NCBI GenBank assembly: GCA_951800155.1
Contig: CATOJL010000005.1
Coordinates: forward strand, 1-23,653
DNA length: 23,653 bases
Direction of reading: 5' to 3'
Origin: an uncultured Bacilli bacterium
Lineage (GTDB): Bacteria; Bacillota_I; Bacilli_A; RF39; UBA660
The position numbers were made by a program, and so were the translations under genes. A model generated the notes under the pieces. The model worked only from the letters and a program-made list of their open reading frames with translations. It was not told where the DNA came from and searched no databases. Positions 9,629 to 17,342 of this stretch are shown in pieces (position 1 is the first letter of the stretch; the number at the start of each line of letters is the position of its first letter).

Positions 9629-10030
9629 CTATATTTGAGCACATAAAGAATATACTTCTTCATTTATCTTATGAACACTTAAATCAGAACAGGTGGCAAT
9701 AATCAAGCAATTTTGAGGTAAATCAAAAGTACTTACTTTTTTATATTTTAACAACTCTACAAATTTTGTTTGTTCTTCTAATGCAATCTCATTAATATTC
9801 TCAATCAATAAAATAACAGAACCTTTTTTGCTTTTTTCAATTAATTCTCGATACCATTCTGGTGGACAAAACTCTATGTTTTCATAATGTCCATTTAATG
9901 CCAGTCTATCCACATTTGCTTTTATAATCACTGCATTATCAAAAACAGTAGAAGGTATATTTTCAATTAATAAAGGAGAAAGACCAGACTGCATATAGTT
10001 CTCTAATAAATTTACTCTTTCTTTATTCAT
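9629..10030 (-). CDS. Small AAA-like protein lacking a Walker A motif (133 aa)
   Basis: GSVILLIENINEIALEEQTKFVELLKYKKVSTFDLPQNCLIIATCSD parallels the Walker-B/sensor-1 half of the upstream ATPase (HIIFFDELTNALPSIQGMAFNIVLDG..KWKLPDNARIVAAGND). No GxxxxGK[ST] is present. An ATGA start/stop overlap with the upstream gene and a strong AAGGAGG 9 nt upstream indicate translational coupling. Confidence 0.6.
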   Translation of the reverse strand: MNKERVNLLENYMQSGLSPLLIENIPSTVFDNAVIIKANVDRLALNGHYENIEFCPPEWYRELIEKSKKGSVILLIENINEIALEEQTKFVELLKYKKVSTFDLPQNCLIIATCSDLSVHKINEEVYSLCAQI

Positions 10031-11958
10031 TTTCTTATTCCTCCTTGGGTATTATTTTCAGACATTTTTATTTCGAGTAAGCGCTCCATTCTTGCTTCAT
10101 CCCCATGTGCCCACATAGATTCAAAAACAGCTCTTGGTTCCGCTCCTAATTTCTTCATAAAATCTCTTATGATTTCAAAATGTTCATCATCAACAGAAGA
10201 TAAGCCAACAGCTGTTGCAAATTTCTGTGATACATTCATCTCTAAATCTCCCTCAGAGTAATTATGCTGAATTACATCTTCAACACATAAAACCTGAAAA
10301 CTTACAAATGCAATAAAATCTCTTGTTAACTCCTCTCCTATTAAAGCACGAAGCATCTCTGGCTTCTTCGTTTTATAAAGTACCTTAGATGCCATCTCCC
10401 ATTTTCTTGGATCTGCATTTGGTTGATCACCTGTATAAGGTGTTCTTAATACATCACTACCACTATAAGATTTATAGGCCACATAAGCATAAATCGCAGG
10501 ATGAATTGGTAGTTCTAATTCCTCTTCTTTATAATCCAATCTCTCATATTTTCCCTTTGGTGTAGATGCCCATTTTAACCAACTATCTACCGTCGTTTGA
10601 ATATATACATGTGCAAAACGATTAAATAGTGGTTCTGCCATTTGGTTTGCAGCCAATGAATCATTTAAATCATTTCCAGCTGCCACTATTCTTGCATTAT
10701 CTGGTAATTTCCACTTACCATCGACTTCCCCATCTAATACAATATTGAATGCCATTCCTTGAATCGAAGGAAGAGCATTAGTAAGTTCATCAAAAAATAT
10801 AATATGAATTTTATTGGGTTCTCTCTCACATTTTTCTTTTACCTTTAAATACCATGTCGGTGCTACATCTATCATTTCGCCCATTTCTGCATTATACACA
10901 CTTTTTCCATTTAAACTATTTGGTGTCGCATTTCTCATATATATAATTTCACAATCTGGATCAAGCTGTTTCACCCTCGCTGATTTTCCCTCACTCGATC
11001 TACCATGTAAAAAAACAGAAACATTGCTTTCGATAGCACCTCTTATGATGTCTTCTTCGGATACATTATCAAATTGGAATCCATATGGGTTTTCTTTTCT
11101 CGACTTTTGCTTACTAAGTAAAGATTCCTCTTGATCCATTGCCCCTTGCAAATATGTTTGACTAGATACAATTTCTTTTGCAAAACAAGTATCCATAAAT
11201 TGTTTGATATCTGTTCGATCAAAATCACCATCATAATCTCTTATATGTTTAAATTGCACTCCAGAAAAAATAATTTTCTTACAAAGAGCAATATTCGCCA
11301 TTTCATCGATTAACCAAGAAATTGGCTCCACTTTCACCCAATACACATAACCTGATTGCACAGTTCTACCATCAGATAAAGTCGAACCATCTGCATTCAT
11401 ATCAGCCACAAAACGGATATACTTGCTTCCATTATACGCATACTCGATATGTTTTCGTGCTTTAAAATATATTTCTACGCTTTGAGAGTTTTCTGAATCC
11501 GTTGTATACTTTTTTCCTGTTATTCTTAAATTTCCGCTATTATAAAGTCCCTCTAATAGACTTGAACTTTTTTCATCCACTATCGTTTGTGGATATTCCC
11601 CATATTCTACTTCCTTACATCCGTTAGCACCTCTCACTTCGTTCGAGGAGATAGAGGAGATTGCAGAATAAGGTAAAGCGGGGCGAGAACCTACAGACCG
11701 TTTAGAAATATCGATCCAGTGCCTAGTGCCGTGTAAATTAACCGCGCGCGCATCATTGTCACCATCAGATGACTTTGTCCACCACCACCCAGTTCTATCC
11801 TTTCCTGTGTTTCCTTCGCTTGTATAATAGGACGATGCAAATCCCCCTAATAAAATAGAGAAATCTGTTATAGCACATGCTGTACCATATTTTCGAATTA
11901 TATCTAACTGATTGCTTCCAAATATCTGTTCATCCGTTAAAAATGTAAAATTGTTCAT
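10027..11958 (-). CDS. DGR target protein: N-terminal variable lectin-like (WW..S...G.RPAL type) domain + central beta-rich region + C-terminal MoxR/AAA_5-like ATPase
   Basis: It contains the VR (residues ~70-96 counted from ATG 11958). N-terminal signature: FLTDEQIFG...TGWWWTKSS...ARAV..G.......VGSRPALPY. ATPase motifs: Walker A VFLHGRSSEGKS, Walker B IHIIFFDELTNA, sensor-1 RIVAAGND, then LFNRFAHVYI. No signal peptide or TM helix is seen. The track start TTG 12006 has no SD. ATG 11958 is preceded by GGTGA at 7 nt. Confidence 0.85.
   Translation of the reverse strand: MNNFTFLTDEQIFGSNQLDIIRKYGTACAITDFSILLGGFASSYYTSEGNTGKDRTGWWWTKSSDGDNDARAVNLHGTRHWIDISKRSVGSRPALPYSAISSISSNEVRGANGCKEVEYGEYPQTIVDEKSSSLLEGLYNSGNLRITGKKYTTDSENSQSVEIYFKARKHIEYAYNGSKYIRFVADMNADGSTLSDGRTVQSGYVYWVKVEPISWLIDEMANIALCKKIIFSGVQFKHIRDYDGDFDRTDIKQFMDTCFAKEIVSSQTYLQGAMDQEESLLSKQKSRKENPYGFQFDNVSEEDIIRGAIESNVSVFLHGRSSEGKSARVKQLDPDCEIIYMRNATPNSLNGKSVYNAEMGEMIDVAPTWYLKVKEKCEREPNKIHIIFFDELTNALPSIQGMAFNIVLDGEVDGKWKLPDNARIVAAGNDLNDSLAANQMAEPLFNRFAHVYIQTTVDSWLKWASTPKGKYERLDYKEEELELPIHPAIYAYVAYKSYSGSDVLRTPYTGDQPNADPRKWEMASKVLYKTKKPEMLRALIGEELTRDFIAFVSFQVLCVEDVIQHNYSEGDLEMNVSQKFATAVGLSSVDDEHFEIIRDFMKKLGAEPRAVFESMWAHGDEARMERLLEIKMSENNTQGGIRK
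11671..11752 (-). repeat. DGR variable repeat (VR)
   Basis: 82 nt are colinear with 13251-13332. In the 73-nt core (11680-11752 vs 13260-13332), 58 positions are identical and 15 differ, all at purines of the TR sense strand. It is bounded by adenine-free GC clamps: TGCGCGCGCGGTT (5') and CGCCCCG (3'). Confidence 0.85.
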
Positions 11959-12011
11959 ATATAAATCACCAACTATATCATAACATAAATTTCCTTTTTT
12001 TGACAAATTTT

Positions 12012-13034
12012 CTATTGAAAAGGAAATGTATCCATTTTTAATTTTTTACTCTCTTTTGTGTCTTTTATATGATTATAAAAGGCATTTTTTCGAAGATACA
12101 CATATTCATCATCTACTATTCCTTTTTTATATAACTTATTTACCGTTTTTAAATGTTTTTTCAAACGTTGCTTTGATGTATATCTTAGCTTCATAATGAT
12201 TTTCCCATGATTCATTAAGATATGCCGATATCCTAAAAAATCAATTCCATTTTTTACCATTCCAATTTGTGTTTTATTATTTAATTCTAAATCCAATAAT
12301 TCTTTACATAGCTTTTCTATTTTAGTTTTACATAAAGCTAAGTACTTTTTATCCCTATGAACTAAAATCATATCATCCATATATCGCACATACCCTTTTA
12401 TTTGTAATTGCTCTTTTATATAATGGTCAACTTTATTTAAATATAAAAGGGCAAACCATTGACTAGACTGATTGCCAAGTGGTAAACCAATATTAGCACA
12501 ATTTGGTTGTTCATCAATTAACTTTTTTATCATCCACATCTCATCTTCTGAAAAATTGAGTTCTTCTAAAAGATGAATTAATATACTATGATTTATACTT
12601 GGAAAATATTTACGAATATCACATTTTAAGAAATATATATCATTATTTTTTTCTTTCCCATACTCTTTTTTCAAAAATGTATGTAATCTTTCTATAGCAA
12701 AAGTTGTCCCTTTCCCCTTTCGACATGCACAATTGTCATAGATTAATTTTTTATCTATTTTAGGTTTTAAACAAACATCACAAAAACATCGAATCATTAC
12801 TCGATCTTTAAAAGGTAAAGCTTCTATCAATCTCTCTTTCGGTTCATAAATATAAAACTCTTTATATTTGCCCATTGCATATTTCTTCCCTACCAATTCT
12901 TTATGCAAAACAGATAAGTTAAAAGACAAATTTGATTCAAATCGAATCACCTCTCCTTTATGTTGTTTTGCTATTCTACAATTTTTATATGCAACATTTA
13001 AATTTTCAAAAGAAAATATTTCGTCCAATCGCAT
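12012..13034 (-). CDS. DGR-type reverse transcriptase
   Basis: YIYEPKERLIEALPFKDRVMIRCF (RT motifs 1-2), GLPLGNQSSQWFALLYLN (the DGR-diagnostic GNxxSQ in motif 4), VRYMDDMILV (YMDD catalytic box) and GIDFLGYR. ATG 13034 (MRLDEIFSFENL) has GGGGAGG 5 nt upstream. The track extension to 13073 has no SD. Confidence 0.9.
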   Translation of the reverse strand: MRLDEIFSFENLNVAYKNCRIAKQHKGEVIRFESNLSFNLSVLHKELVGKKYAMGKYKEFYIYEPKERLIEALPFKDRVMIRCFCDVCLKPKIDKKLIYDNCACRKGKGTTFAIERLHTFLKKEYGKEKNNDIYFLKCDIRKYFPSINHSILIHLLEELNFSEDEMWMIKKLIDEQPNCANIGLPLGNQSSQWFALLYLNKVDHYIKEQLQIKGYVRYMDDMILVHRDKKYLALCKTKIEKLCKELLDLELNNKTQIGMVKNGIDFLGYRHILMNHGKIIMKLRYTSKQRLKKHLKTVNKLYKKGIVDDEYVYLRKNAFYNHIKDTKESKKLKMDTFPFQ

Positions 13035-13411
13035 AAAATCCTCCCCAAAAAATAGACACCCCTTATAACGCACAAAGAGTCCCCTGACTCGTTGCTTGTG
13101 TGAGTGTCCCTAATTCTTCCATCGCAAACTTAGGATGATATCCTTTAGCGATTAGAAAAGAAGAAAATTTCTTCACCTTACAATACGGATATATTTTTCT
13201 TAAAATATATTTCTCTGATTTGTTTTCTGAATTCAATAAAATTCCTTCAAAAGTGAATCGGGGCGATCCCCTACATCCCGTTTAGAAACATTGTTTCAGT
13301 TCCTATTTCCGTTTTAATCAACCGCGCGCGCAAGACAGCAACAGGGGCTCAAGACAAAGCACGCACAAAAATAAATTTTCTTCTTAATTAAAGGCTTTTC
13401 AACCTAAAATC
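13035..13411 (-). ncRNA. DGR template RNA region (TR plus RT-proximal structured spacer)
   Basis: Non-coding interval between avd and the RT. It is visibly more GC-rich than its surroundings. It contains the TR and an imperfect long hairpin near the RT start, with sense-strand nested stems GACAC/GTGTC, CACAA/TTGTG and GAGTC-AGGG-GACTC (about 13057-13110). Transcript boundaries are not determinable. Confidence 0.55.
13251..13332 (-). repeat. DGR template repeat (TR)
   Basis: Non-coding copy of the VR. Read in the VR frame it gives A R A V D * N G N R N * N N V S K R D V G D R P. It is rich in AAC/AAT codons, which is typical of TRs. Confidence 0.85.
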
Positions 13412-14256: not shown

Positions 14257-15393
14257 ATGAATTTATCAAAATATAAAGTAGAAAAATCATTAATTCTTAC
14301 TATGATACTGTTTTTTATAATCAGTCTTATTTCTATCTATAGTGCAGGAGCCATTGATAGTGCGAATGCAAGCTTATATATAAAGCAACTCATGTGGTAT
14401 ATTTGTGGCACTATTTTAGTATTTTTCATCATGTTTATTGGAAATGACTTTTTTATTAGAAATAGTTTTATTTTTTATATTCTTGGTAATATTTTTCTAT
14501 TATTACTTCTTTTCTTTGCGCGACCAATTAACGATGCCAAATGTTGGTTTGAAATAAAGGGGATTGGGACCATTCAACCTAGTGAATTTATGAAAATTAT
14601 CCTTATTCTTTTTTTAAGTAAACAAATTGAAGATTTTCGAATAAAGTACAACAATCCTACTATACTAGAAGAGTTTCTATTTTTATTAAAAATAATGATT
14701 CTTGTAGCCATTCCTAGCATTCTTACCTTTTTAGAACCAGATACTGGTGTTGTTCTAATTTATTTCCTAATTACCATCATTATGCTTTTTGTTGGGGGCA
14801 TTCGTTTTCGCTGGTTTCTACTCCTAATAATTTTATGTTCTCTAGGCATAGGAACTTTATTATTTATTTACTTTCAAAAACAAGAAATGTTTATTAAACT
14901 GTTTGGAACTAGCTTTTTTCTTCGTGTGGATCGACTGCTTGATTGGTCAAATAAAAGTGGATTTCAATTAGAGCATGGATTATTTTCTATTGGTTCAGCT
15001 GGACTATTTGGACATGGGTTAAAAAAAACACCTCTTTATTTTCCAGAAGCTCATACTGATTTTATTTTTGCTGTATACGCTTCTAATTTTGGACTTCTTG
15101 GTTCCTTATTCCTTCTATGTCTTATTATCTTTTTTGACTTAAAGCTAATCCAAACTGCTTTAAGGGCAAGCAACAACATCTATAAATATATTACGGCTGG
15201 CATTGTAGGAATGCTGATTTACCAACAAATACAGAACATAGGCATGACCTTTGGAGTAATGCCAATTACAGGTATTACCTTACCCTTTATTAGTTATGGT
15301 GGCTCTAGCTTATTAAGCTATATGTTTATGGTGGGCGTACTCTTTAACATTTCCAATCATGTAATTAAATATCGACATAAATATGGAGAATAA
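14257..15393 (+). CDS. SEDS-family peptidoglycan glycosyltransferase (FtsW/RodA/SpoVE)
   Basis: Multi-pass membrane protein with family motifs: IQPSEFMKI, GLFGHGL, PEAHTDFIFAV, PITGITLPFISYGGSSLL. ATG 14257 is preceded by GGTGA at 5 nt. The track start at 14245 is a TTG. Confidence 0.9.
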   Translation: MNLSKYKVEKSLILTMILFFIISLISIYSAGAIDSANASLYIKQLMWYICGTILVFFIMFIGNDFFIRNSFIFYILGNIFLLLLLFFARPINDAKCWFEIKGIGTIQPSEFMKIILILFLSKQIEDFRIKYNNPTILEEFLFLLKIMILVAIPSILTFLEPDTGVVLIYFLITIIMLFVGGIRFRWFLLLIILCSLGIGTLLFIYFQKQEMFIKLFGTSFFLRVDRLLDWSNKSGFQLEHGLFSIGSAGLFGHGLKKTPLYFPEAHTDFIFAVYASNFGLLGSLFLLCLIIFFDLKLIQTALRASNNIYKYITAGIVGMLIYQQIQNIGMTFGVMPITGITLPFISYGGSSLLSYMFMVGVLFNISNHVIKYRHKYGE

Positions 15394-15397
15394 AAGA

Positions 15398-15425
15398 GGC
15401 TGTCATGAAATGAAATAATTTCATA
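15398..15425. repeat. IS left terminal inverted repeat
   Basis: GGCTGTCATGAAATGAAATAATTTCATA is the exact reverse complement of 17046-17073. Confidence 0.85.
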
Positions 15426-15517
15426 TAGCTTCTTTTTTAGTTAAACAAAAATAAAAAAAGCACTAGAAAGTAAATTCCTAATGCAGTTTTGTGATACAAT
15501 CAAATTGCTGAAAGAAG

Positions 15518-17050
15518 ATGTATCACATGGAATATTTTACTACAAATAGATTCCTTTTTCTAGTGTCCTCAAAGAAATGTCTTGAGGAATATGAAAAAAT
15601 AGATAAATTTATAGGAATTTTAAATAAAAGTAATATAGGAAATTTGATTGAAAAGAAAATTAAGTGTAATGGTCGAACAGGATATAACCCATATGATTTA
15701 GTTGCCACAATAGTATATTGTTTCTCACAATTCAAAAGCAGTTTAAGAGAAATAGAAAAATTATGTACATTTGATTTAAGAATTATTTACTTAATGAAAC
15801 AGAAACAACCAAGTTATAACGCTATTTGTGAATGTATTAATAGATATATTTTACCTTATCAATATGAAATCTTTACTATGATAACGAAAGCAATTATCCA
15901 AGAATTTCATTTAGATATAAGCAACCAATATTTAGATGGTACTAAGATAGAAGCAAATGCAAATAAATATAAATTTGTATGGAAACCAACTACTTTTCAC
16001 AAAAGATTAGATATTAAAATAAAAAAATTATTACTATTAATGAAAATAGAAATTAATTCAATTCCTTCTGGCAAAGGAAAACGATTAACTAAAGCTCAAA
16101 AAAATTATAAATTGGCATATCAATATTTAATTAAATTATTAGAATATGAAGAAAAAGAATGTATTTGTGGTGAGAATAGAAATTCTTATTTTAAAACAGA
16201 TGAAGATGCTACTGTAATGGTATTAAAGGAAGATTATTATTCAAAATTAAGCCATGATTTTCATGCTGGATATAATATTCAAGTTTTAGTATCCAGTGGA
16301 TTAATAACGATGTATGGATTATTTCAAGATAGAAGTGATCATTATACTTTTATTCCTATGAATAATTTATACTTTAAATACTATAATAAGTATCCTAAGA
16401 ATGAATGTGCTGATTCAAGATATGGAATATACATAAATTATAAATATATGAGAAGACACAATATAGGGAATTATGTAAAATTTCAATCTTGGTCAGGAGA
16501 AGCAGATGGAAAACGTCCTCAATTTTTTTATACATTTCCTAATGGTGTCCCATGCCTGAACACTTGTATTGGTGAAGAAGTATCATTTGACAATAATCAT
16601 CATCAAAGAAATCAAGGTGGAAAACTATATAAATTTATTGGTTGTAATAGTTGTAATTATTCATATTTATGTAAGAAAAATTTAAAAAACAAAGATTTAG
16701 ATTACAGACTATATGAATTGATACCTGACTATGAATTATTAAAAGAACAAGCACGAGAGAATTTACTTAGTCCAAAAGGAATAGAAATAAGGATTAATAG
16801 AAGTATTCAAGTAGAAGGGACTTTTGGACAAATTAAACAAAATATGAATTATGAACGAATAAGAAGACGTGGTTTAGAAAGAGTATCCTGTGAAATTATG
16901 CTCATGTGTTTAGGAAGAAATGTCAGAAAATTTTTTACATTATTAAATACAGATAATATAAAAAGTAATTATTGGGAAAAATCGTCAAATTTAAAAAAAG
17001 AAAAGTTTCCTTTTCCTAAACAAAAAACTCCAAAGAAAAAAGCTGTATGA
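15518..17050 (+). CDS. IS1182-family DDE transposase
   Basis: N-terminal GRTGYNPYDLVATIVYCFSQFKSSLREIEKLC (InsH-type N domain). YLDGTKIEANANKYKFVW (first D), KTDEDATVMV...AGYNIQVLV (second D), and the C-terminal EGTFGQIKQNMNYERIRRRGLERV...LGRNVRKF block. The usual ADAGYG reads ADSRYG, so activity is unproven. Confidence 0.85.
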   Translation: MYHMEYFTTNRFLFLVSSKKCLEEYEKIDKFIGILNKSNIGNLIEKKIKCNGRTGYNPYDLVATIVYCFSQFKSSLREIEKLCTFDLRIIYLMKQKQPSYNAICECINRYILPYQYEIFTMITKAIIQEFHLDISNQYLDGTKIEANANKYKFVWKPTTFHKRLDIKIKKLLLLMKIEINSIPSGKGKRLTKAQKNYKLAYQYLIKLLEYEEKECICGENRNSYFKTDEDATVMVLKEDYYSKLSHDFHAGYNIQVLVSSGLITMYGLFQDRSDHYTFIPMNNLYFKYYNKYPKNECADSRYGIYINYKYMRRHNIGNYVKFQSWSGEADGKRPQFFYTFPNGVPCLNTCIGEEVSFDNNHHQRNQGGKLYKFIGCNSCNYSYLCKKNLKNKDLDYRLYELIPDYELLKEQARENLLSPKGIEIRINRSIQVEGTFGQIKQNMNYERIRRRGLERVSCEIMLMCLGRNVRKFFTLLNTDNIKSNYWEKSSNLKKEKFPFPKQKTPKKKAV

Positions 17051-17073
17051 AATTATTTCATTTCATGACAGCC
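17046..17073. repeat. IS right terminal inverted repeat
   Basis: TATGAAATTATTTCATTTCATGACAGCC. It overlaps the transposase stop codon (17048-17050). Confidence 0.85.
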
Positions 17074-17342
17074 CCTTTTGTTTGTAGGCAAATCCATTCC
17101 TAATTTAAACACTCTGTCCTAGTTTGCACGTGATAATTAGCTTTTATATACATATTAAATTTATTATTTTATCAAGTATAAACTAGAGCAGAACTCTTTT
17201 TAAATTCAAAATTTCCATTATGCACTAAAGTTGCTACACGCCAAAATGTAGCAAAAGAAAATCGCATTTCTGCGAAGATTTTATTACAGATTTTGGGAAT
17301 CTGTAACATCTATTTCTCTTTGTAAAACAAAGGCAAAATCAT

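Follow-up and report, generated by a model that had tools for sequence, protein, structure and literature searches.

Why should a DGR whose mutagenesis is directed at adenines carry a VR that also departs from its TR at five guanines? The question arises from a window of 23,653 nt (the whole stretch of DNA analysed here), in which a repeat search recovered the family D1 (11670-11752 and 13250-13332, 83 nt, 78% identity). Aligned without gaps on the sense (minus) strand, TR and VR differ at 15 positions of the core: ten at TR A, five at TR G and none at pyrimidines, in a 73-nt TR core (13260-13332) that holds 22 A, 22 G, 15 T and 14 C. Two of the five guanine changes are G>A (VR positions 11739 and 11709) and the other three are G>T (11697, 11689 and 11688). 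These are the codons, base counts and restriction to purines that the initial annotation had read by hand, and its concern that the alignment might be shifted is settled by an identical register in 55 related TR-VR pairs. Its reading of a TR/VR pair under adenine-directed mutagenesis is thus borne out, and the five guanine differences are real. Neither a third TR/VR copy nor an ectopic donor was found in the window, where a degenerate TR pattern matches the two known copies only and GGTTCTCG occurs in the VR alone. The TR carries an in-frame TAA (13314-13316) and an in-frame TGA (13296-13298), and many homing products must therefore be null alleles. Genetic code 4, with TGA read as Trp, is ruled out: TGA terminates 3 of 21 ORFs and the Trp codon is TGG.

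The element is a complete canonical DGR, with the order Avd-like gene, TR, RT and target gene on the minus strand of the window (Table 1). In DGR RTs the signature [I/V/L]GxxxSQ replaces QGxxxSP, and the RT here has LGNQSSQ (aa 186-192) together with YMDD (218). The ORF listing starts this RT at a GTG at 13073, giving 353 aa; in conspecific contigs it is called at 340 aa. The Avd-like gene, which lies upstream of the TR in conspecific loci as well, aligns over the full length of two profiles but scores under the cut-off of each: Pfam bAvd (E 8.4e-6; 26.7 bits against 40) and NCBIfam DivGenRetAVD (E 4.5e-7; 30.1 bits against 80). The C-terminal half of the target looks like an AAA+ ATPase, judged from weak matches only, to AAA_5 and Sigma54_activat (E 0.03-0.1). 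Residues 17-294 of the target, which are its first 278 aa when counted from an ATG at 11958, were modelled with AlphaFold2 at a pLDDT of 79.9 and a pTM of 0.83. Searched with Foldseek, this variable-domain model matched no lectin or Ig structure, the best E values being 0.039 in PDB and 0.061 in BFVD, and neither a PDB sequence search with the variable domain nor a Pfam search with the N-terminal part returned a match, so that none of the three identified a C-type lectin or Ig fold. Such a fold is usual in DGR targets, yet it is not a defining trait of the retroelement. The 133-aa gene that follows the target is kept in all conspecific loci and matched no family in Pfam or NCBIfam.

Table 1. 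Features of the DGR locus and positions of sequence change, in window coordinates
Feature	Position	Strand	Basis
Avd-like accessory gene, 194 aa	13412..13996	-	Weak profile matches and position
TR, intergenic, 74-nt core from TGCGCGCGCGG to CGCCCCG	13259..13332	-	Repeat detection and alignment
Private TR mutation, sense A, GGGGAT against GGGGCT elsewhere	13267	-	TR comparison
TR 3' flank ATTCACTTTTGAAGG, IMH*-like, family-conserved, unlike VR flank	13240..13258	-	Function putative, from the Bordetella phage BPP-1 analogy
Reverse transcriptase, 340 aa from ATG	12012..13034	-	RVT_1, E 6.6e-18
Target gene, 659 aa; N-terminal domain with VR, C-terminal half AAA+ ATPase-like	10027..12006	-	
VR, target codons about 85-109	11679..11752	-	Repeat detection and alignment
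G>A, GAT>AAT, Asp>Asn, private to window	11739	-	Allele comparison; same site G>C in L144
G>A, GTT>ATT, Val>Ile, private to window	11709	-	GTT in all related TRs and VRs
GA>TC, GAT>TCT, private to window; G>T directly 5' of mutated adenine	11696..11697	-	Allele comparison
GG>TT, GGGGCT>GGTTCT, in 3' GC-rich boundary element; common to L059	11688..11689	-	Allele comparison
VR 3' flank CTTTACCTTATTCTGC, IMH-like, encodes conserved ALPYS motif	11660..11678	-	Sequence comparison
133-aa gene, overlaps target stop	9629..10030	-	Family not assigned
DUF2201_N metallopeptidase-like and DUF2201 VWA-like protein, 481 aa	8173..9618	-	Pfam, E 2.8e-34 and 2.8e-12

The DGR is active in the population. The species holds 14 distinct VR alleles, the window's included, each of them a contig consensus sequence rather than reads. 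Loci of one clone (L051-L060) carry nine VR alleles on flanks that differ at 0-1 sites over about 3.9 kb, and the TR is identical in 11 of 12 conspecific copies, the window's alone differing, at one site. All 20 adenines from 11738 to 11696 vary across conspecific alleles; the last VR adenine, 11692, is invariant. The window's own allele recurs on a single other contig, L046, which is 100% identical to the window over 10.5 kb and probably comes from the same assembly. For wider comparison, a metagenome scan with the RT yielded few close relatives and ten extra usable TR-VR pairs, and the family comparisons draw on an earlier set of 53 pairs or on 55 related pairs (56 with the window).

The one odd TR site is itself among the 15 differences. 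At position 13267 the other 11 conspecific TR copies, like the wider family, read C, and the window alone reads A; what looked like a tenth A>C is a C>A private to the window's TR, and the VR retains the ancestral C. The original count of 10 of 22 TR adenines changed is correct as a tally, but one of these is a TR mutation, so nine are true A>N changes. Drift in the TR had also been proposed for the guanine changes. It has occurred at 13267, a site that had not been suspected, but it does not account for the five guanine differences, since G stands at these sites in all conspecific TRs; comparison of the TRs of conspecific loci thus revealed no polymorphism at these positions. Descent of the five from ancestral TR adenines is excluded likewise, GTT and GGGGCT being conserved in the family. 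The window's branch is about 0.7% diverged from its conspecifics, a distance at which drift should account for one change in the TR and at most about 0.4 in the VR.

The population tally shows that the five guanine-derived positions are not fixed among VR alleles. Those at 11739, 11709 and 11697 are private to the window, and the pair at 11689/11688 is also found in L059. VR and TR agree at 11689/11688 in 12 of 14 conspecific alleles and at 11697 in 13 of 14, which rules out the proposal that the three 3' changes are fixed IMH/IMH*-type differences. In spirit the proposal partly survives for two of the three, the GG>TT pair, which lies inside the GC-rich boundary element. The locus does have an IMH/IMH* pattern, which the family conserves: GGGGCTCGCCC(C/A)G is followed by CTTTACC in the VR and by ATTCAC in the TR, and conserved TR-VR divergence begins only past CGCCCCG. 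By analogy, the GC-rich element and its diverged flanks would serve as IMH versus IMH* in directing transfer. Non-adenine differences are denser within the 3' GC-rich element (10/210 versus 10/510 cells, p 0.046). The two backgrounds that carry GG>TT are about 1.3% apart, and candidate causes of the sharing are descent, recombination, a hot spot and chimerism of a contig.

Structure around the repeats offered little. Folded as DNA, the segment 11600-11690 did not outdo shuffled sequences (z 0.25) and gave no hairpin or cruciform after the VR, and the fold of the TR RNA (13075-13400) is not distinctive (z -0.33). A candidate palindrome in GGGGCTCGCCCC was rejected: its arms show no compensating changes in relatives, and the same letters encode a conserved Gly-Ala-Arg-Pro motif.

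Across the 14 alleles of the species, change reaches 50% at A, 4.0% at G (2.7% without the window), 1.9% at C and 1.5% at T; the corresponding family rates (53 pairs) are 44.8%, 1.45%, 1.2% and 1.2%. Guanines do not change significantly more often than pyrimidines either in the 13 other alleles (8/299 versus 7/377, or 1.9%; p 0.6) or in the family, and with the window included the species counts become 13/322 versus 7/406 (p 0.07). The window tops the 56 pairs in non-adenine changes and also in guanine changes, and the probability of at least 5 of 22 guanines changing is about 1e-5 at the family rate of 1.45% and about 3e-4 at the species rate without the window. Guanine changes are clumped, with five in the window, three in L059, two each in L141 and L144 and none in 8 of the 14 alleles. 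Variants at guanine sites nevertheless recur in independent samples (L056, L059, L141-143 and L144-146).

Nor are the non-adenine changes random across the 55 pairs. G>T outnumbers C>A by 15 to 1 (13 to 1 in the earlier 53-pair set, binomial p 0.0055). Non-adenine sites directly 5' of a mutated adenine are changed in 12 of 351 cases versus 28 of 2553 elsewhere (odds ratio 3.2, p 0.0019), and the 3' side of mutated adenines shows no such effect (2/236). The G>T excess and the 5'-adjacency excess point to RT errors and tie a share of the non-adenine changes to reverse transcription. A low-level guanine error with an RT-like signature is thus a property of the family, in agreement with the miscopying by bRT-Avd in vitro of 1.6% at G, 0.5% at U and 0.3% at C (PMC7826257).

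We therefore read the five guanine differences, with a probability of roughly 60%, as rare non-adenine changes of the kind already known from DGRs, present here in unusual number and of mixed origins, in a canonical and active element. As deduced from the family, the RT-Avd complex would make cDNA from TR RNA and miscopy about half of the template adenines, and the cDNA would then substitute for the VR as far as the GC-rich 3' boundary element. For the individual changes we infer several processes. GAT>TCT (11697/11696) may be a tandem RT error, in which a wrong base is placed opposite A and dA is then placed opposite the 5' G, giving G>T. GG>TT (11689/11688) lies where VR and TR may differ and would not be reset at each homing; it could be an inherited VR polymorphism or a recurrent error at a junction or hot spot. 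The G>A changes at 11739 and 11709 may be further RT errors or ordinary point mutations on the strain's branch. There are two of them, where neutral drift would bring only about 0.4 changes to all non-adenine VR positions together, and G>A occurs in 2 of 1147 guanine cells in the family, so that the window alone carries as many. This account of mixed origins is somewhat ad hoc, since the window is an outlier with five guanine changes and no pyrimidine change.

It is tempting to extend the tandem error to the family, although we give this rather less than even odds. RTs of the family would make directional errors in which the 5' neighbour of a miscopied adenine, mostly G, is copied with dA, and some cDNAs, the window's included, would be hit several times. 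If so, GA>TC and GA>TT would reach codons closed to adenine-only mutagenesis, such as GAT>TCT (Ser) and TGA>TTT (Phe).

The clumping of guanine changes among the 14 alleles could instead mean that the window's VR, and perhaps that of L059, derives from one cDNA made under conditions that raise guanine errors, such as dCTP shortage or oxidised TR RNA (8-oxo-G:dA), with several guanines hit together. All five window changes displace the dC expected opposite G in cDNA, and A>G, which requires dC insertion, makes up 2 of 9 adenine changes in the window versus 258 of 641 in the family, where it is the commonest class. However, G>A and G>T would need different wrong nucleotides, and if GG>TT is inherited or a hot spot, the window and L059 are left with one independent G>T apiece and the clumping loses its significance. 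Both a nucleotide-pool shortage and RNA damage are conjectural here, and we regard this explanation as unlikely.

Alternatively, rewriting of the VR might have ceased, for example when GG>TT broke the 3' recognition element, the guanine changes then being later point mutations, some of them selected. GG>TT and the private TR change both fall within the GC-rich 3' element GGGGCTCGCCCC, and the two G>A changes are conservative and of the commonest spontaneous mutation type. The divergence of the window's lineage, about 0.7%, would give time for such mutations, but predicts only about 0.4 neutral changes in the 51 non-adenine VR positions, against the five seen (Poisson P < 1e-3). Selection is not the cause of GGG>GGT, which is synonymous. 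Change at sense-strand G and never at C fits an RNA or cDNA step better than mutation of duplex DNA, and the window's RT, Avd and TR are intact. A frozen VR is accordingly quite improbable.

An RT with relaxed purine fidelity, which the initial annotation had offered, does not hold for the species: the RT is not a general purine mutator, because the other alleles show 2.7% change at G and 1.9% at pyrimidines beside about 50% at A. As a property of the window's strain, with guanine miscopied as well as adenine, it would suit the highest guanine count of the 56 pairs and the five residues (V14A, S34A, E115K, L159I and K303N) that alone separate the window's RT from that of the clone. Yet all five lie outside the LGNQSSQ, YMDD and FKDRV segments, and at S34, E115 and K303 the window's residue is also present in related RTs. 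None was found at the equivalents, assigned by motif only, of bRT R74 and I181, which we take to be fidelity-determining positions. Near-identical RTs yield adenine-specific alleles, two of the five guanine changes are also seen with the clone's RT (L059), and the window's RT is represented by a single allele, from which a rate cannot be estimated; we consider a strain-specific change of fidelity very unlikely. A chimeric or erroneous VR in this metagenome-assembled contig is just as hard to credit, even though VRs are polymorphic within samples, short-read assemblers can fuse alleles and the sole other contig with the allele is probably from the same assembly, for adenine-only alleles cannot yield guanine variants by chimerism, five errors in 74 nt with clean flanks are implausible, and the recurrence in independent samples described above speaks against it.

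Returning to the reading as known, rare changes of mixed origin, the closest reference is the BPP-1 DGR (bRT, Avd, TR and mtd VR). In both, the RT has the motif [I/V/L]GxxxSQ and a small helical accessory gene, Avd-like in the present element, adjoins the TR; in both, VR and TR end in a GC-rich 3' element beyond which the flanks diverge, in the manner of IMH and IMH*. Differences are centred on adenine in both, at about 50% per allele here versus 52% in vitro for bRT-Avd, and extra errors are highest at guanine, at 1.5-4% here versus 1.6% in vitro (PMC7826257). Unlike BPP-1 and DGRs in general, the present element has the order Avd, TR, RT, target, with the target downstream of the RT; its VR lies in the N-terminal domain of a 659-aa protein and not at the C-terminus; its TR contains in-frame TAA and TGA; and both a hairpin after the VR and a C-type lectin fold went undetected.

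Wu et al. 2018 (PMC5758913) reported substitutions other than A-to-N for 23% of DGRs, a single target having as many as 11, and Yan et al. 2019 (PMC6642488) for 46% of TR-VR pairs; they number about 1.5 per pair and have been attributed to RT errors, integration errors or independent mutation (PMC5758913, PMC6642488). Like those pairs, the window's has a few non-adenine differences beside many adenine changes; here, however, population data split them into one TR mutation, two changes shared with L059 and three private ones. Non-adenine TR-VR differences are thus already published for DGRs, and the five guanine changes of the window are not a sign of a new kind of mutagenesis. The finding of guanine changes is in itself of small import, such differences being documented and the RT adenine-specific in the population. 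Pairwise tallies can mislead, since without conspecific alleles the TR mutation and the two recurring guanine changes pass as private events. Neither the G>T excess nor the excess 5' of mutated adenines seen in the family was found described in the cited literature on non-A-to-N substitutions. The locus is a good natural system, with a clone bearing nine VR alleles, a target variable domain with no recognised fold match and a stop-bearing TR that therefore generates many null alleles.

The target also deserves mention. MoxR-AAA/vWA ternary conflict systems combine a MoxR-like AAA+ ATPase with a vWA protein and with a third component of VMAP type. DGR-diversified MoxR-like AAA ATPase/vWA conflict systems and CLec-AAA ATPase targets in CPR bacteria have been described (PMC10907252 and work cited there). 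The present locus resembles these in that a single operon joins a DGR target to a putative ATPase of AAA+ type and to a protein with a VWA domain. It differs in that the N-terminal variable domain and the ATPase-like region share one polypeptide (the AAA assignment coming from weak matches), in that the partner with the VWA-like domain belongs to DUF2201 and is metallopeptidase-like at its N-terminus, and in that the host is a low-GC gut Bacilli-type organism. By analogy, this arrangement suggests a diversified sensor coupled to an NTPase.

An ordinary active diversity-generating retroelement (DGR), whose variable repeat (VR) in the window is an allele with unusually many rare non-adenine changes of mixed origin, is the reading we favour, at a probability of about 0.6. 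The VR and its template repeat (TR) fall within the sole strong direct repeat returned by a repeat search of the window (11670-11752 and 13250-13332; 83 nt, 78% identical), and a window scan with a degenerate pattern, N at each TR adenine, found no third copy. TR and VR align without gaps on the minus strand and differ at 15 positions: 10 TR adenines, 5 TR guanines and no pyrimidines (composition of the 73-nt TR core, 13260-13332: A 22, G 22, T 15, C 14). The initial annotation, which had counted these purine-only substitutions by hand, was correct in its alignment and its numbers. The ten adenine-site mismatches are real, but the one at 13267 is not a VR change: the window TR has a sense A where the 11 other conspecific TR copies, identical to one another, have C, and GGGGCT, with C at this site, is also found in relatives. 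What had looked like a tenth A>C is thus a TR mutation, C>A, private to the window. This is the sole difference between the window TR and the other conspecific TRs, so drift in the TR, which had been raised as a cause, holds at 13267 and at no other position. One TR change in 74 nt is approximately the drift expectation for a window branch ~0.7% diverged.

In the 90%-identity cluster that contains the target protein, the 26 sequences differ mainly within the VR. Look-ups of cluster members gave 20 loci from the same species, L047-L060 and L141-L146, with 98.7-99.5% identity to the window. With the window, these hold 14 distinct VR alleles, all of them contig consensus sequences from assemblies and, being naturally sampled, already filtered by selection (TGA>TTT, for example, abolishes a stop codon). 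Ten of the loci (L051-L060) carry nine different VR alleles on flanks with 0-1 differences over ~3.9 kb, across many sequencing runs, and thus represent a single clone whose DGR is active; this clone, which is naturally diversifying its target, would be a good study system. The guanine sites had been proposed as fixed differences of the IMH type (IMH and IMH* being the VR and TR 3' elements that set homing direction). Such fixation is not borne out, as each site is changed sporadically, in only one or two alleles (see table); fixed TR-versus-VR divergence begins only past CGCCCCG, with CTTTACC in the VR and ATTCAC in the TR.

Features of the DGR locus and the VR guanine sites altered in the window
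Feature	Coordinates	Strand	Details
Avd-like (accessory protein) gene	13996-13412	minus	full-length, sub-threshold matches to bAvd and DivGenRetAVD
TR	13259-13332	minus	TGCGCGCGCGG at start, GGGGATCGCCCCG at end
Reverse transcriptase (RT)	13034-12012	minus	RVT_1 E 6.6e-18; DGR signature LGNQSSQ; YMDD
Target gene, 659 aa	12006-10027	minus	VR encodes residues about 85-109
VR	11679-11752	minus	TGCGCGCGCGG at start, GGTTCTCGCCCCG at end
VR guanine site	11739		changed in 2/14 alleles: G>A in window, G>C in L144
VR guanine site	11709		changed in 1/14 alleles: G>A in window
VR guanine site	11697		changed in 1/14 alleles: G>T in window
VR guanine sites	11689 and 11688		changed in 2/14 alleles: GG>TT in window and L059
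133-aa gene		minus	downstream of target
DUF2201 VWA-like/metallopeptidase-like gene		minus	after 133-aa gene

Across the 14 alleles, 50% of adenines are changed, compared with 4.0% of guanines (13/322), 1.9% of cytosines (4/210, all four at one site) and 1.5% of thymines (3/196). With the window left out, guanines (8/299) and pyrimidines (7/377) do not differ (p 0.6), and in the wider family 53 TR-VR pairs give 44.8% for A, 1.45% for G, 1.2% for C and 1.2% for T. The RT is adenine-specific, and guanine shows no significant excess over pyrimidines. Among 56 pairs the window is nevertheless the most extreme; given the guanine rate of the family, five or more changes in 22 would have a probability of ~1e-5, which, like the other P-values here, is approximate and takes no account of the window having been picked as odd-looking.

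The non-adenine changes have a directional signature. In 55 TR-VR pairs (related loci L001-L077 and the conspecific loci, window excluded) they comprise G>T 15, C>T 7, T>G 5, T>C 4, T>A 3, G>C 3, G>A 2 and C>A 1, a 15 to 1 asymmetry between G>T and its complement C>A (13 to 1, p 0.0055 by binomial test, in an earlier 53-pair set). Non-adenine sites immediately 5' of a mutated adenine were changed in 12/351 cases (3.4%) versus 28/2553 (1.1%) elsewhere (odds ratio 3.2, p 0.0019), with no excess immediately 3' (2/236) in the same pairs. Because the RT moves along its template 3' to 5', once it has misincorporated a base it copies the 5' neighbour next. Asymmetry and neighbour effect alike fit reverse-transcription errors better than ordinary duplex DNA mutation. 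They also agree with measurements on bRT-Avd, for which misincorporation is 1.6% at G, 0.5% at U and 0.3% at C, and the base most often misinserted opposite adenine is dA (PMC7826257). The phenomenon first flagged in the window is itself already known, since 23% of curated DGRs have non-A-to-N substitutions, as many as 11 in a single target, for which errors of the RT, errors at integration or unrelated mutation are the proposed causes (PMC5758913), and a second survey has them in 46% of TR-VR pairs, at ~1.5 per pair (PMC6642488). Only the excess of G>T and the directional effect of adjacency were not found described in the DGR literature compared here. GAT>TCT at 11697/11696 in the window has the exact form of the 5'-neighbour tandem change, as do TGA>TTT in L141 and L144 and GAT>CTT in L144.

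Half of the 20 non-adenine changes in the species fall in the 15 nt that precede the divergence of the flanks (10/210 versus 10/510 elsewhere, p 0.046). The only adenine in that stretch, 11692, is the third position of GTA; every change there would be synonymous, yet it is unchanged in 14/14 alleles, whereas variation is seen at each of the other 20 adenines. Four alleles of the one clone, all with different upstream VR sequences, share C>T at 11687, which persistence through homing explains more easily than four independent hits; it may be one event. Together, these observations around 11686-11693 suggest that TR information is usually transferred only as far as a point upstream of the GC-rich element GGGGCTCGCCCC, at whose positions VR and TR could then be free to diverge. 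In BPP-1, the transfer boundary likewise lies within the GC-rich part of the IMH. Both the GG>TT of the window and its TR mutation are inside the 3' GC-rich element. The same GG>TT in L059, on the flanks of the clone, could stem from descent combined with recombination, from a hot spot or from a contig that is chimeric.

For an ordinary active DGR, then, GAT>TCT would be one tandem RT error, GG>TT one tandem change in the boundary element common to another allele, and G>A at 11739 and 11709 two transitions of uncertain origin, with the apparent adenine change at 13267 a miscounted TR mutation. A single error-rich cDNA, produced under nucleotide-pool imbalance or from a damaged template, would account for the clumping of the guanine changes, and we consider it unlikely. 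A frozen VR that drifted later is somewhat more doubtful still, as drift alone predicts ~0.4 changes against the five observed. An RT with relaxed purine fidelity, suggested initially and here taken as strain-specific, is very improbable: guanines do not significantly exceed pyrimidines, and the window and clone enzymes differ at five residues (V14A, S34A, E115K, L159I and K303N), none in a catalytic motif and none supporting such a change, while two of the five guanine changes occur with another RT too, in L059. An assembly artefact is just as hard to credit, given that guanine variants recur in independent samples.

Several conspecific loci are altered in other ways. In L047-L049, the loss of one base from an A7 run (window 12652) breaks the RT into ORFs of 135 and 185 aa; either slippage has truly inactivated the gene or the assembly is wrong there. 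A shorter version of the Avd-like gene, 128 aa, is called in L047, L048 and L141-L145. Loci L141, L142 and L143, from three samples, are TR/VR recombinants that join the TR upstream flank, a VR-type repeat and the VR downstream flank, with the RT and the target N-terminus (~1.6 kb) deleted; these loci lost the DGR when its own repeats recombined. In L144-L146 (at least three samples), the (GC)n clamp at the VR 5' end, corresponding to window about 11742-11751, has lost 2 nt; this frameshifts the target, for which gene calling then gives a 603-aa protein with a different start.

Two in-frame stops in the TR, TAA (13314-13316) and TGA (13296-13298), mean that an unmutated or partly mutated transfer would truncate the target. 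Natural conspecific alleles with a VR stop occur in L057-L060, where the gene is split into 90- or 96-aa and 536-aa ORFs, and 536-aa target fragment proteins are recorded on 19 contigs. In-frame stops are present in 10 of the 23 distinct TRs of the family, and a VR stop in five sampled VRs of related genomes (L001, L007, L010, L025 and L037). AAY-rich TRs usually avoid stops; against that rule, the TR stops look like DGR-driven ON/OFF switching.

The minus-strand order is Avd-like gene, TR, RT, target gene, 133-aa gene and DUF2201 gene. The VR is far from the target's C-terminus, and N-terminal or internal VRs are rare, yet described (PMC5758913). The C-terminal half of the target has weak AAA_5 and Sigma-54-type matches only; DGR targets linked to AAA+/MoxR ATPases and vWA proteins have been described (PMC10907252). 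The AlphaFold2 model built for target residues 17-294 (window 11125-11958, the first 278 aa when counted from the ATG at 11958; pLDDT 79.9, pTM 0.83) had no significant Foldseek match in PDB or BFVD, and the VR-bearing N-terminal region has neither a PDB sequence match nor a Pfam match. The usual C-type lectin fold is thus unconfirmed for the variable region, and the modelled region may be a variable-domain fold new to DGR targets. Some target homologues carry a precomputed PF19789 match. The genetic code is standard bacterial, with TGA terminating 3/21 ORFs and TGG encoding Trp. RT relatives at 63-82% identity come from many gut metagenome-assembled genomes labelled Bacilli, Clostridia or Tenericutes, and the TR-RT-VR spacing is kept in their loci. 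Beyond an FtsW/RodA gene, ~1.4 kb from the DGR, lies an insertion sequence (15389-17082), also in conspecific contigs, with a DDE transposase gene (15518-17050, DDE_Tnp_1_6) between 50-nt inverted repeats (15389-15438 and 17033-17082, 90% complementary).
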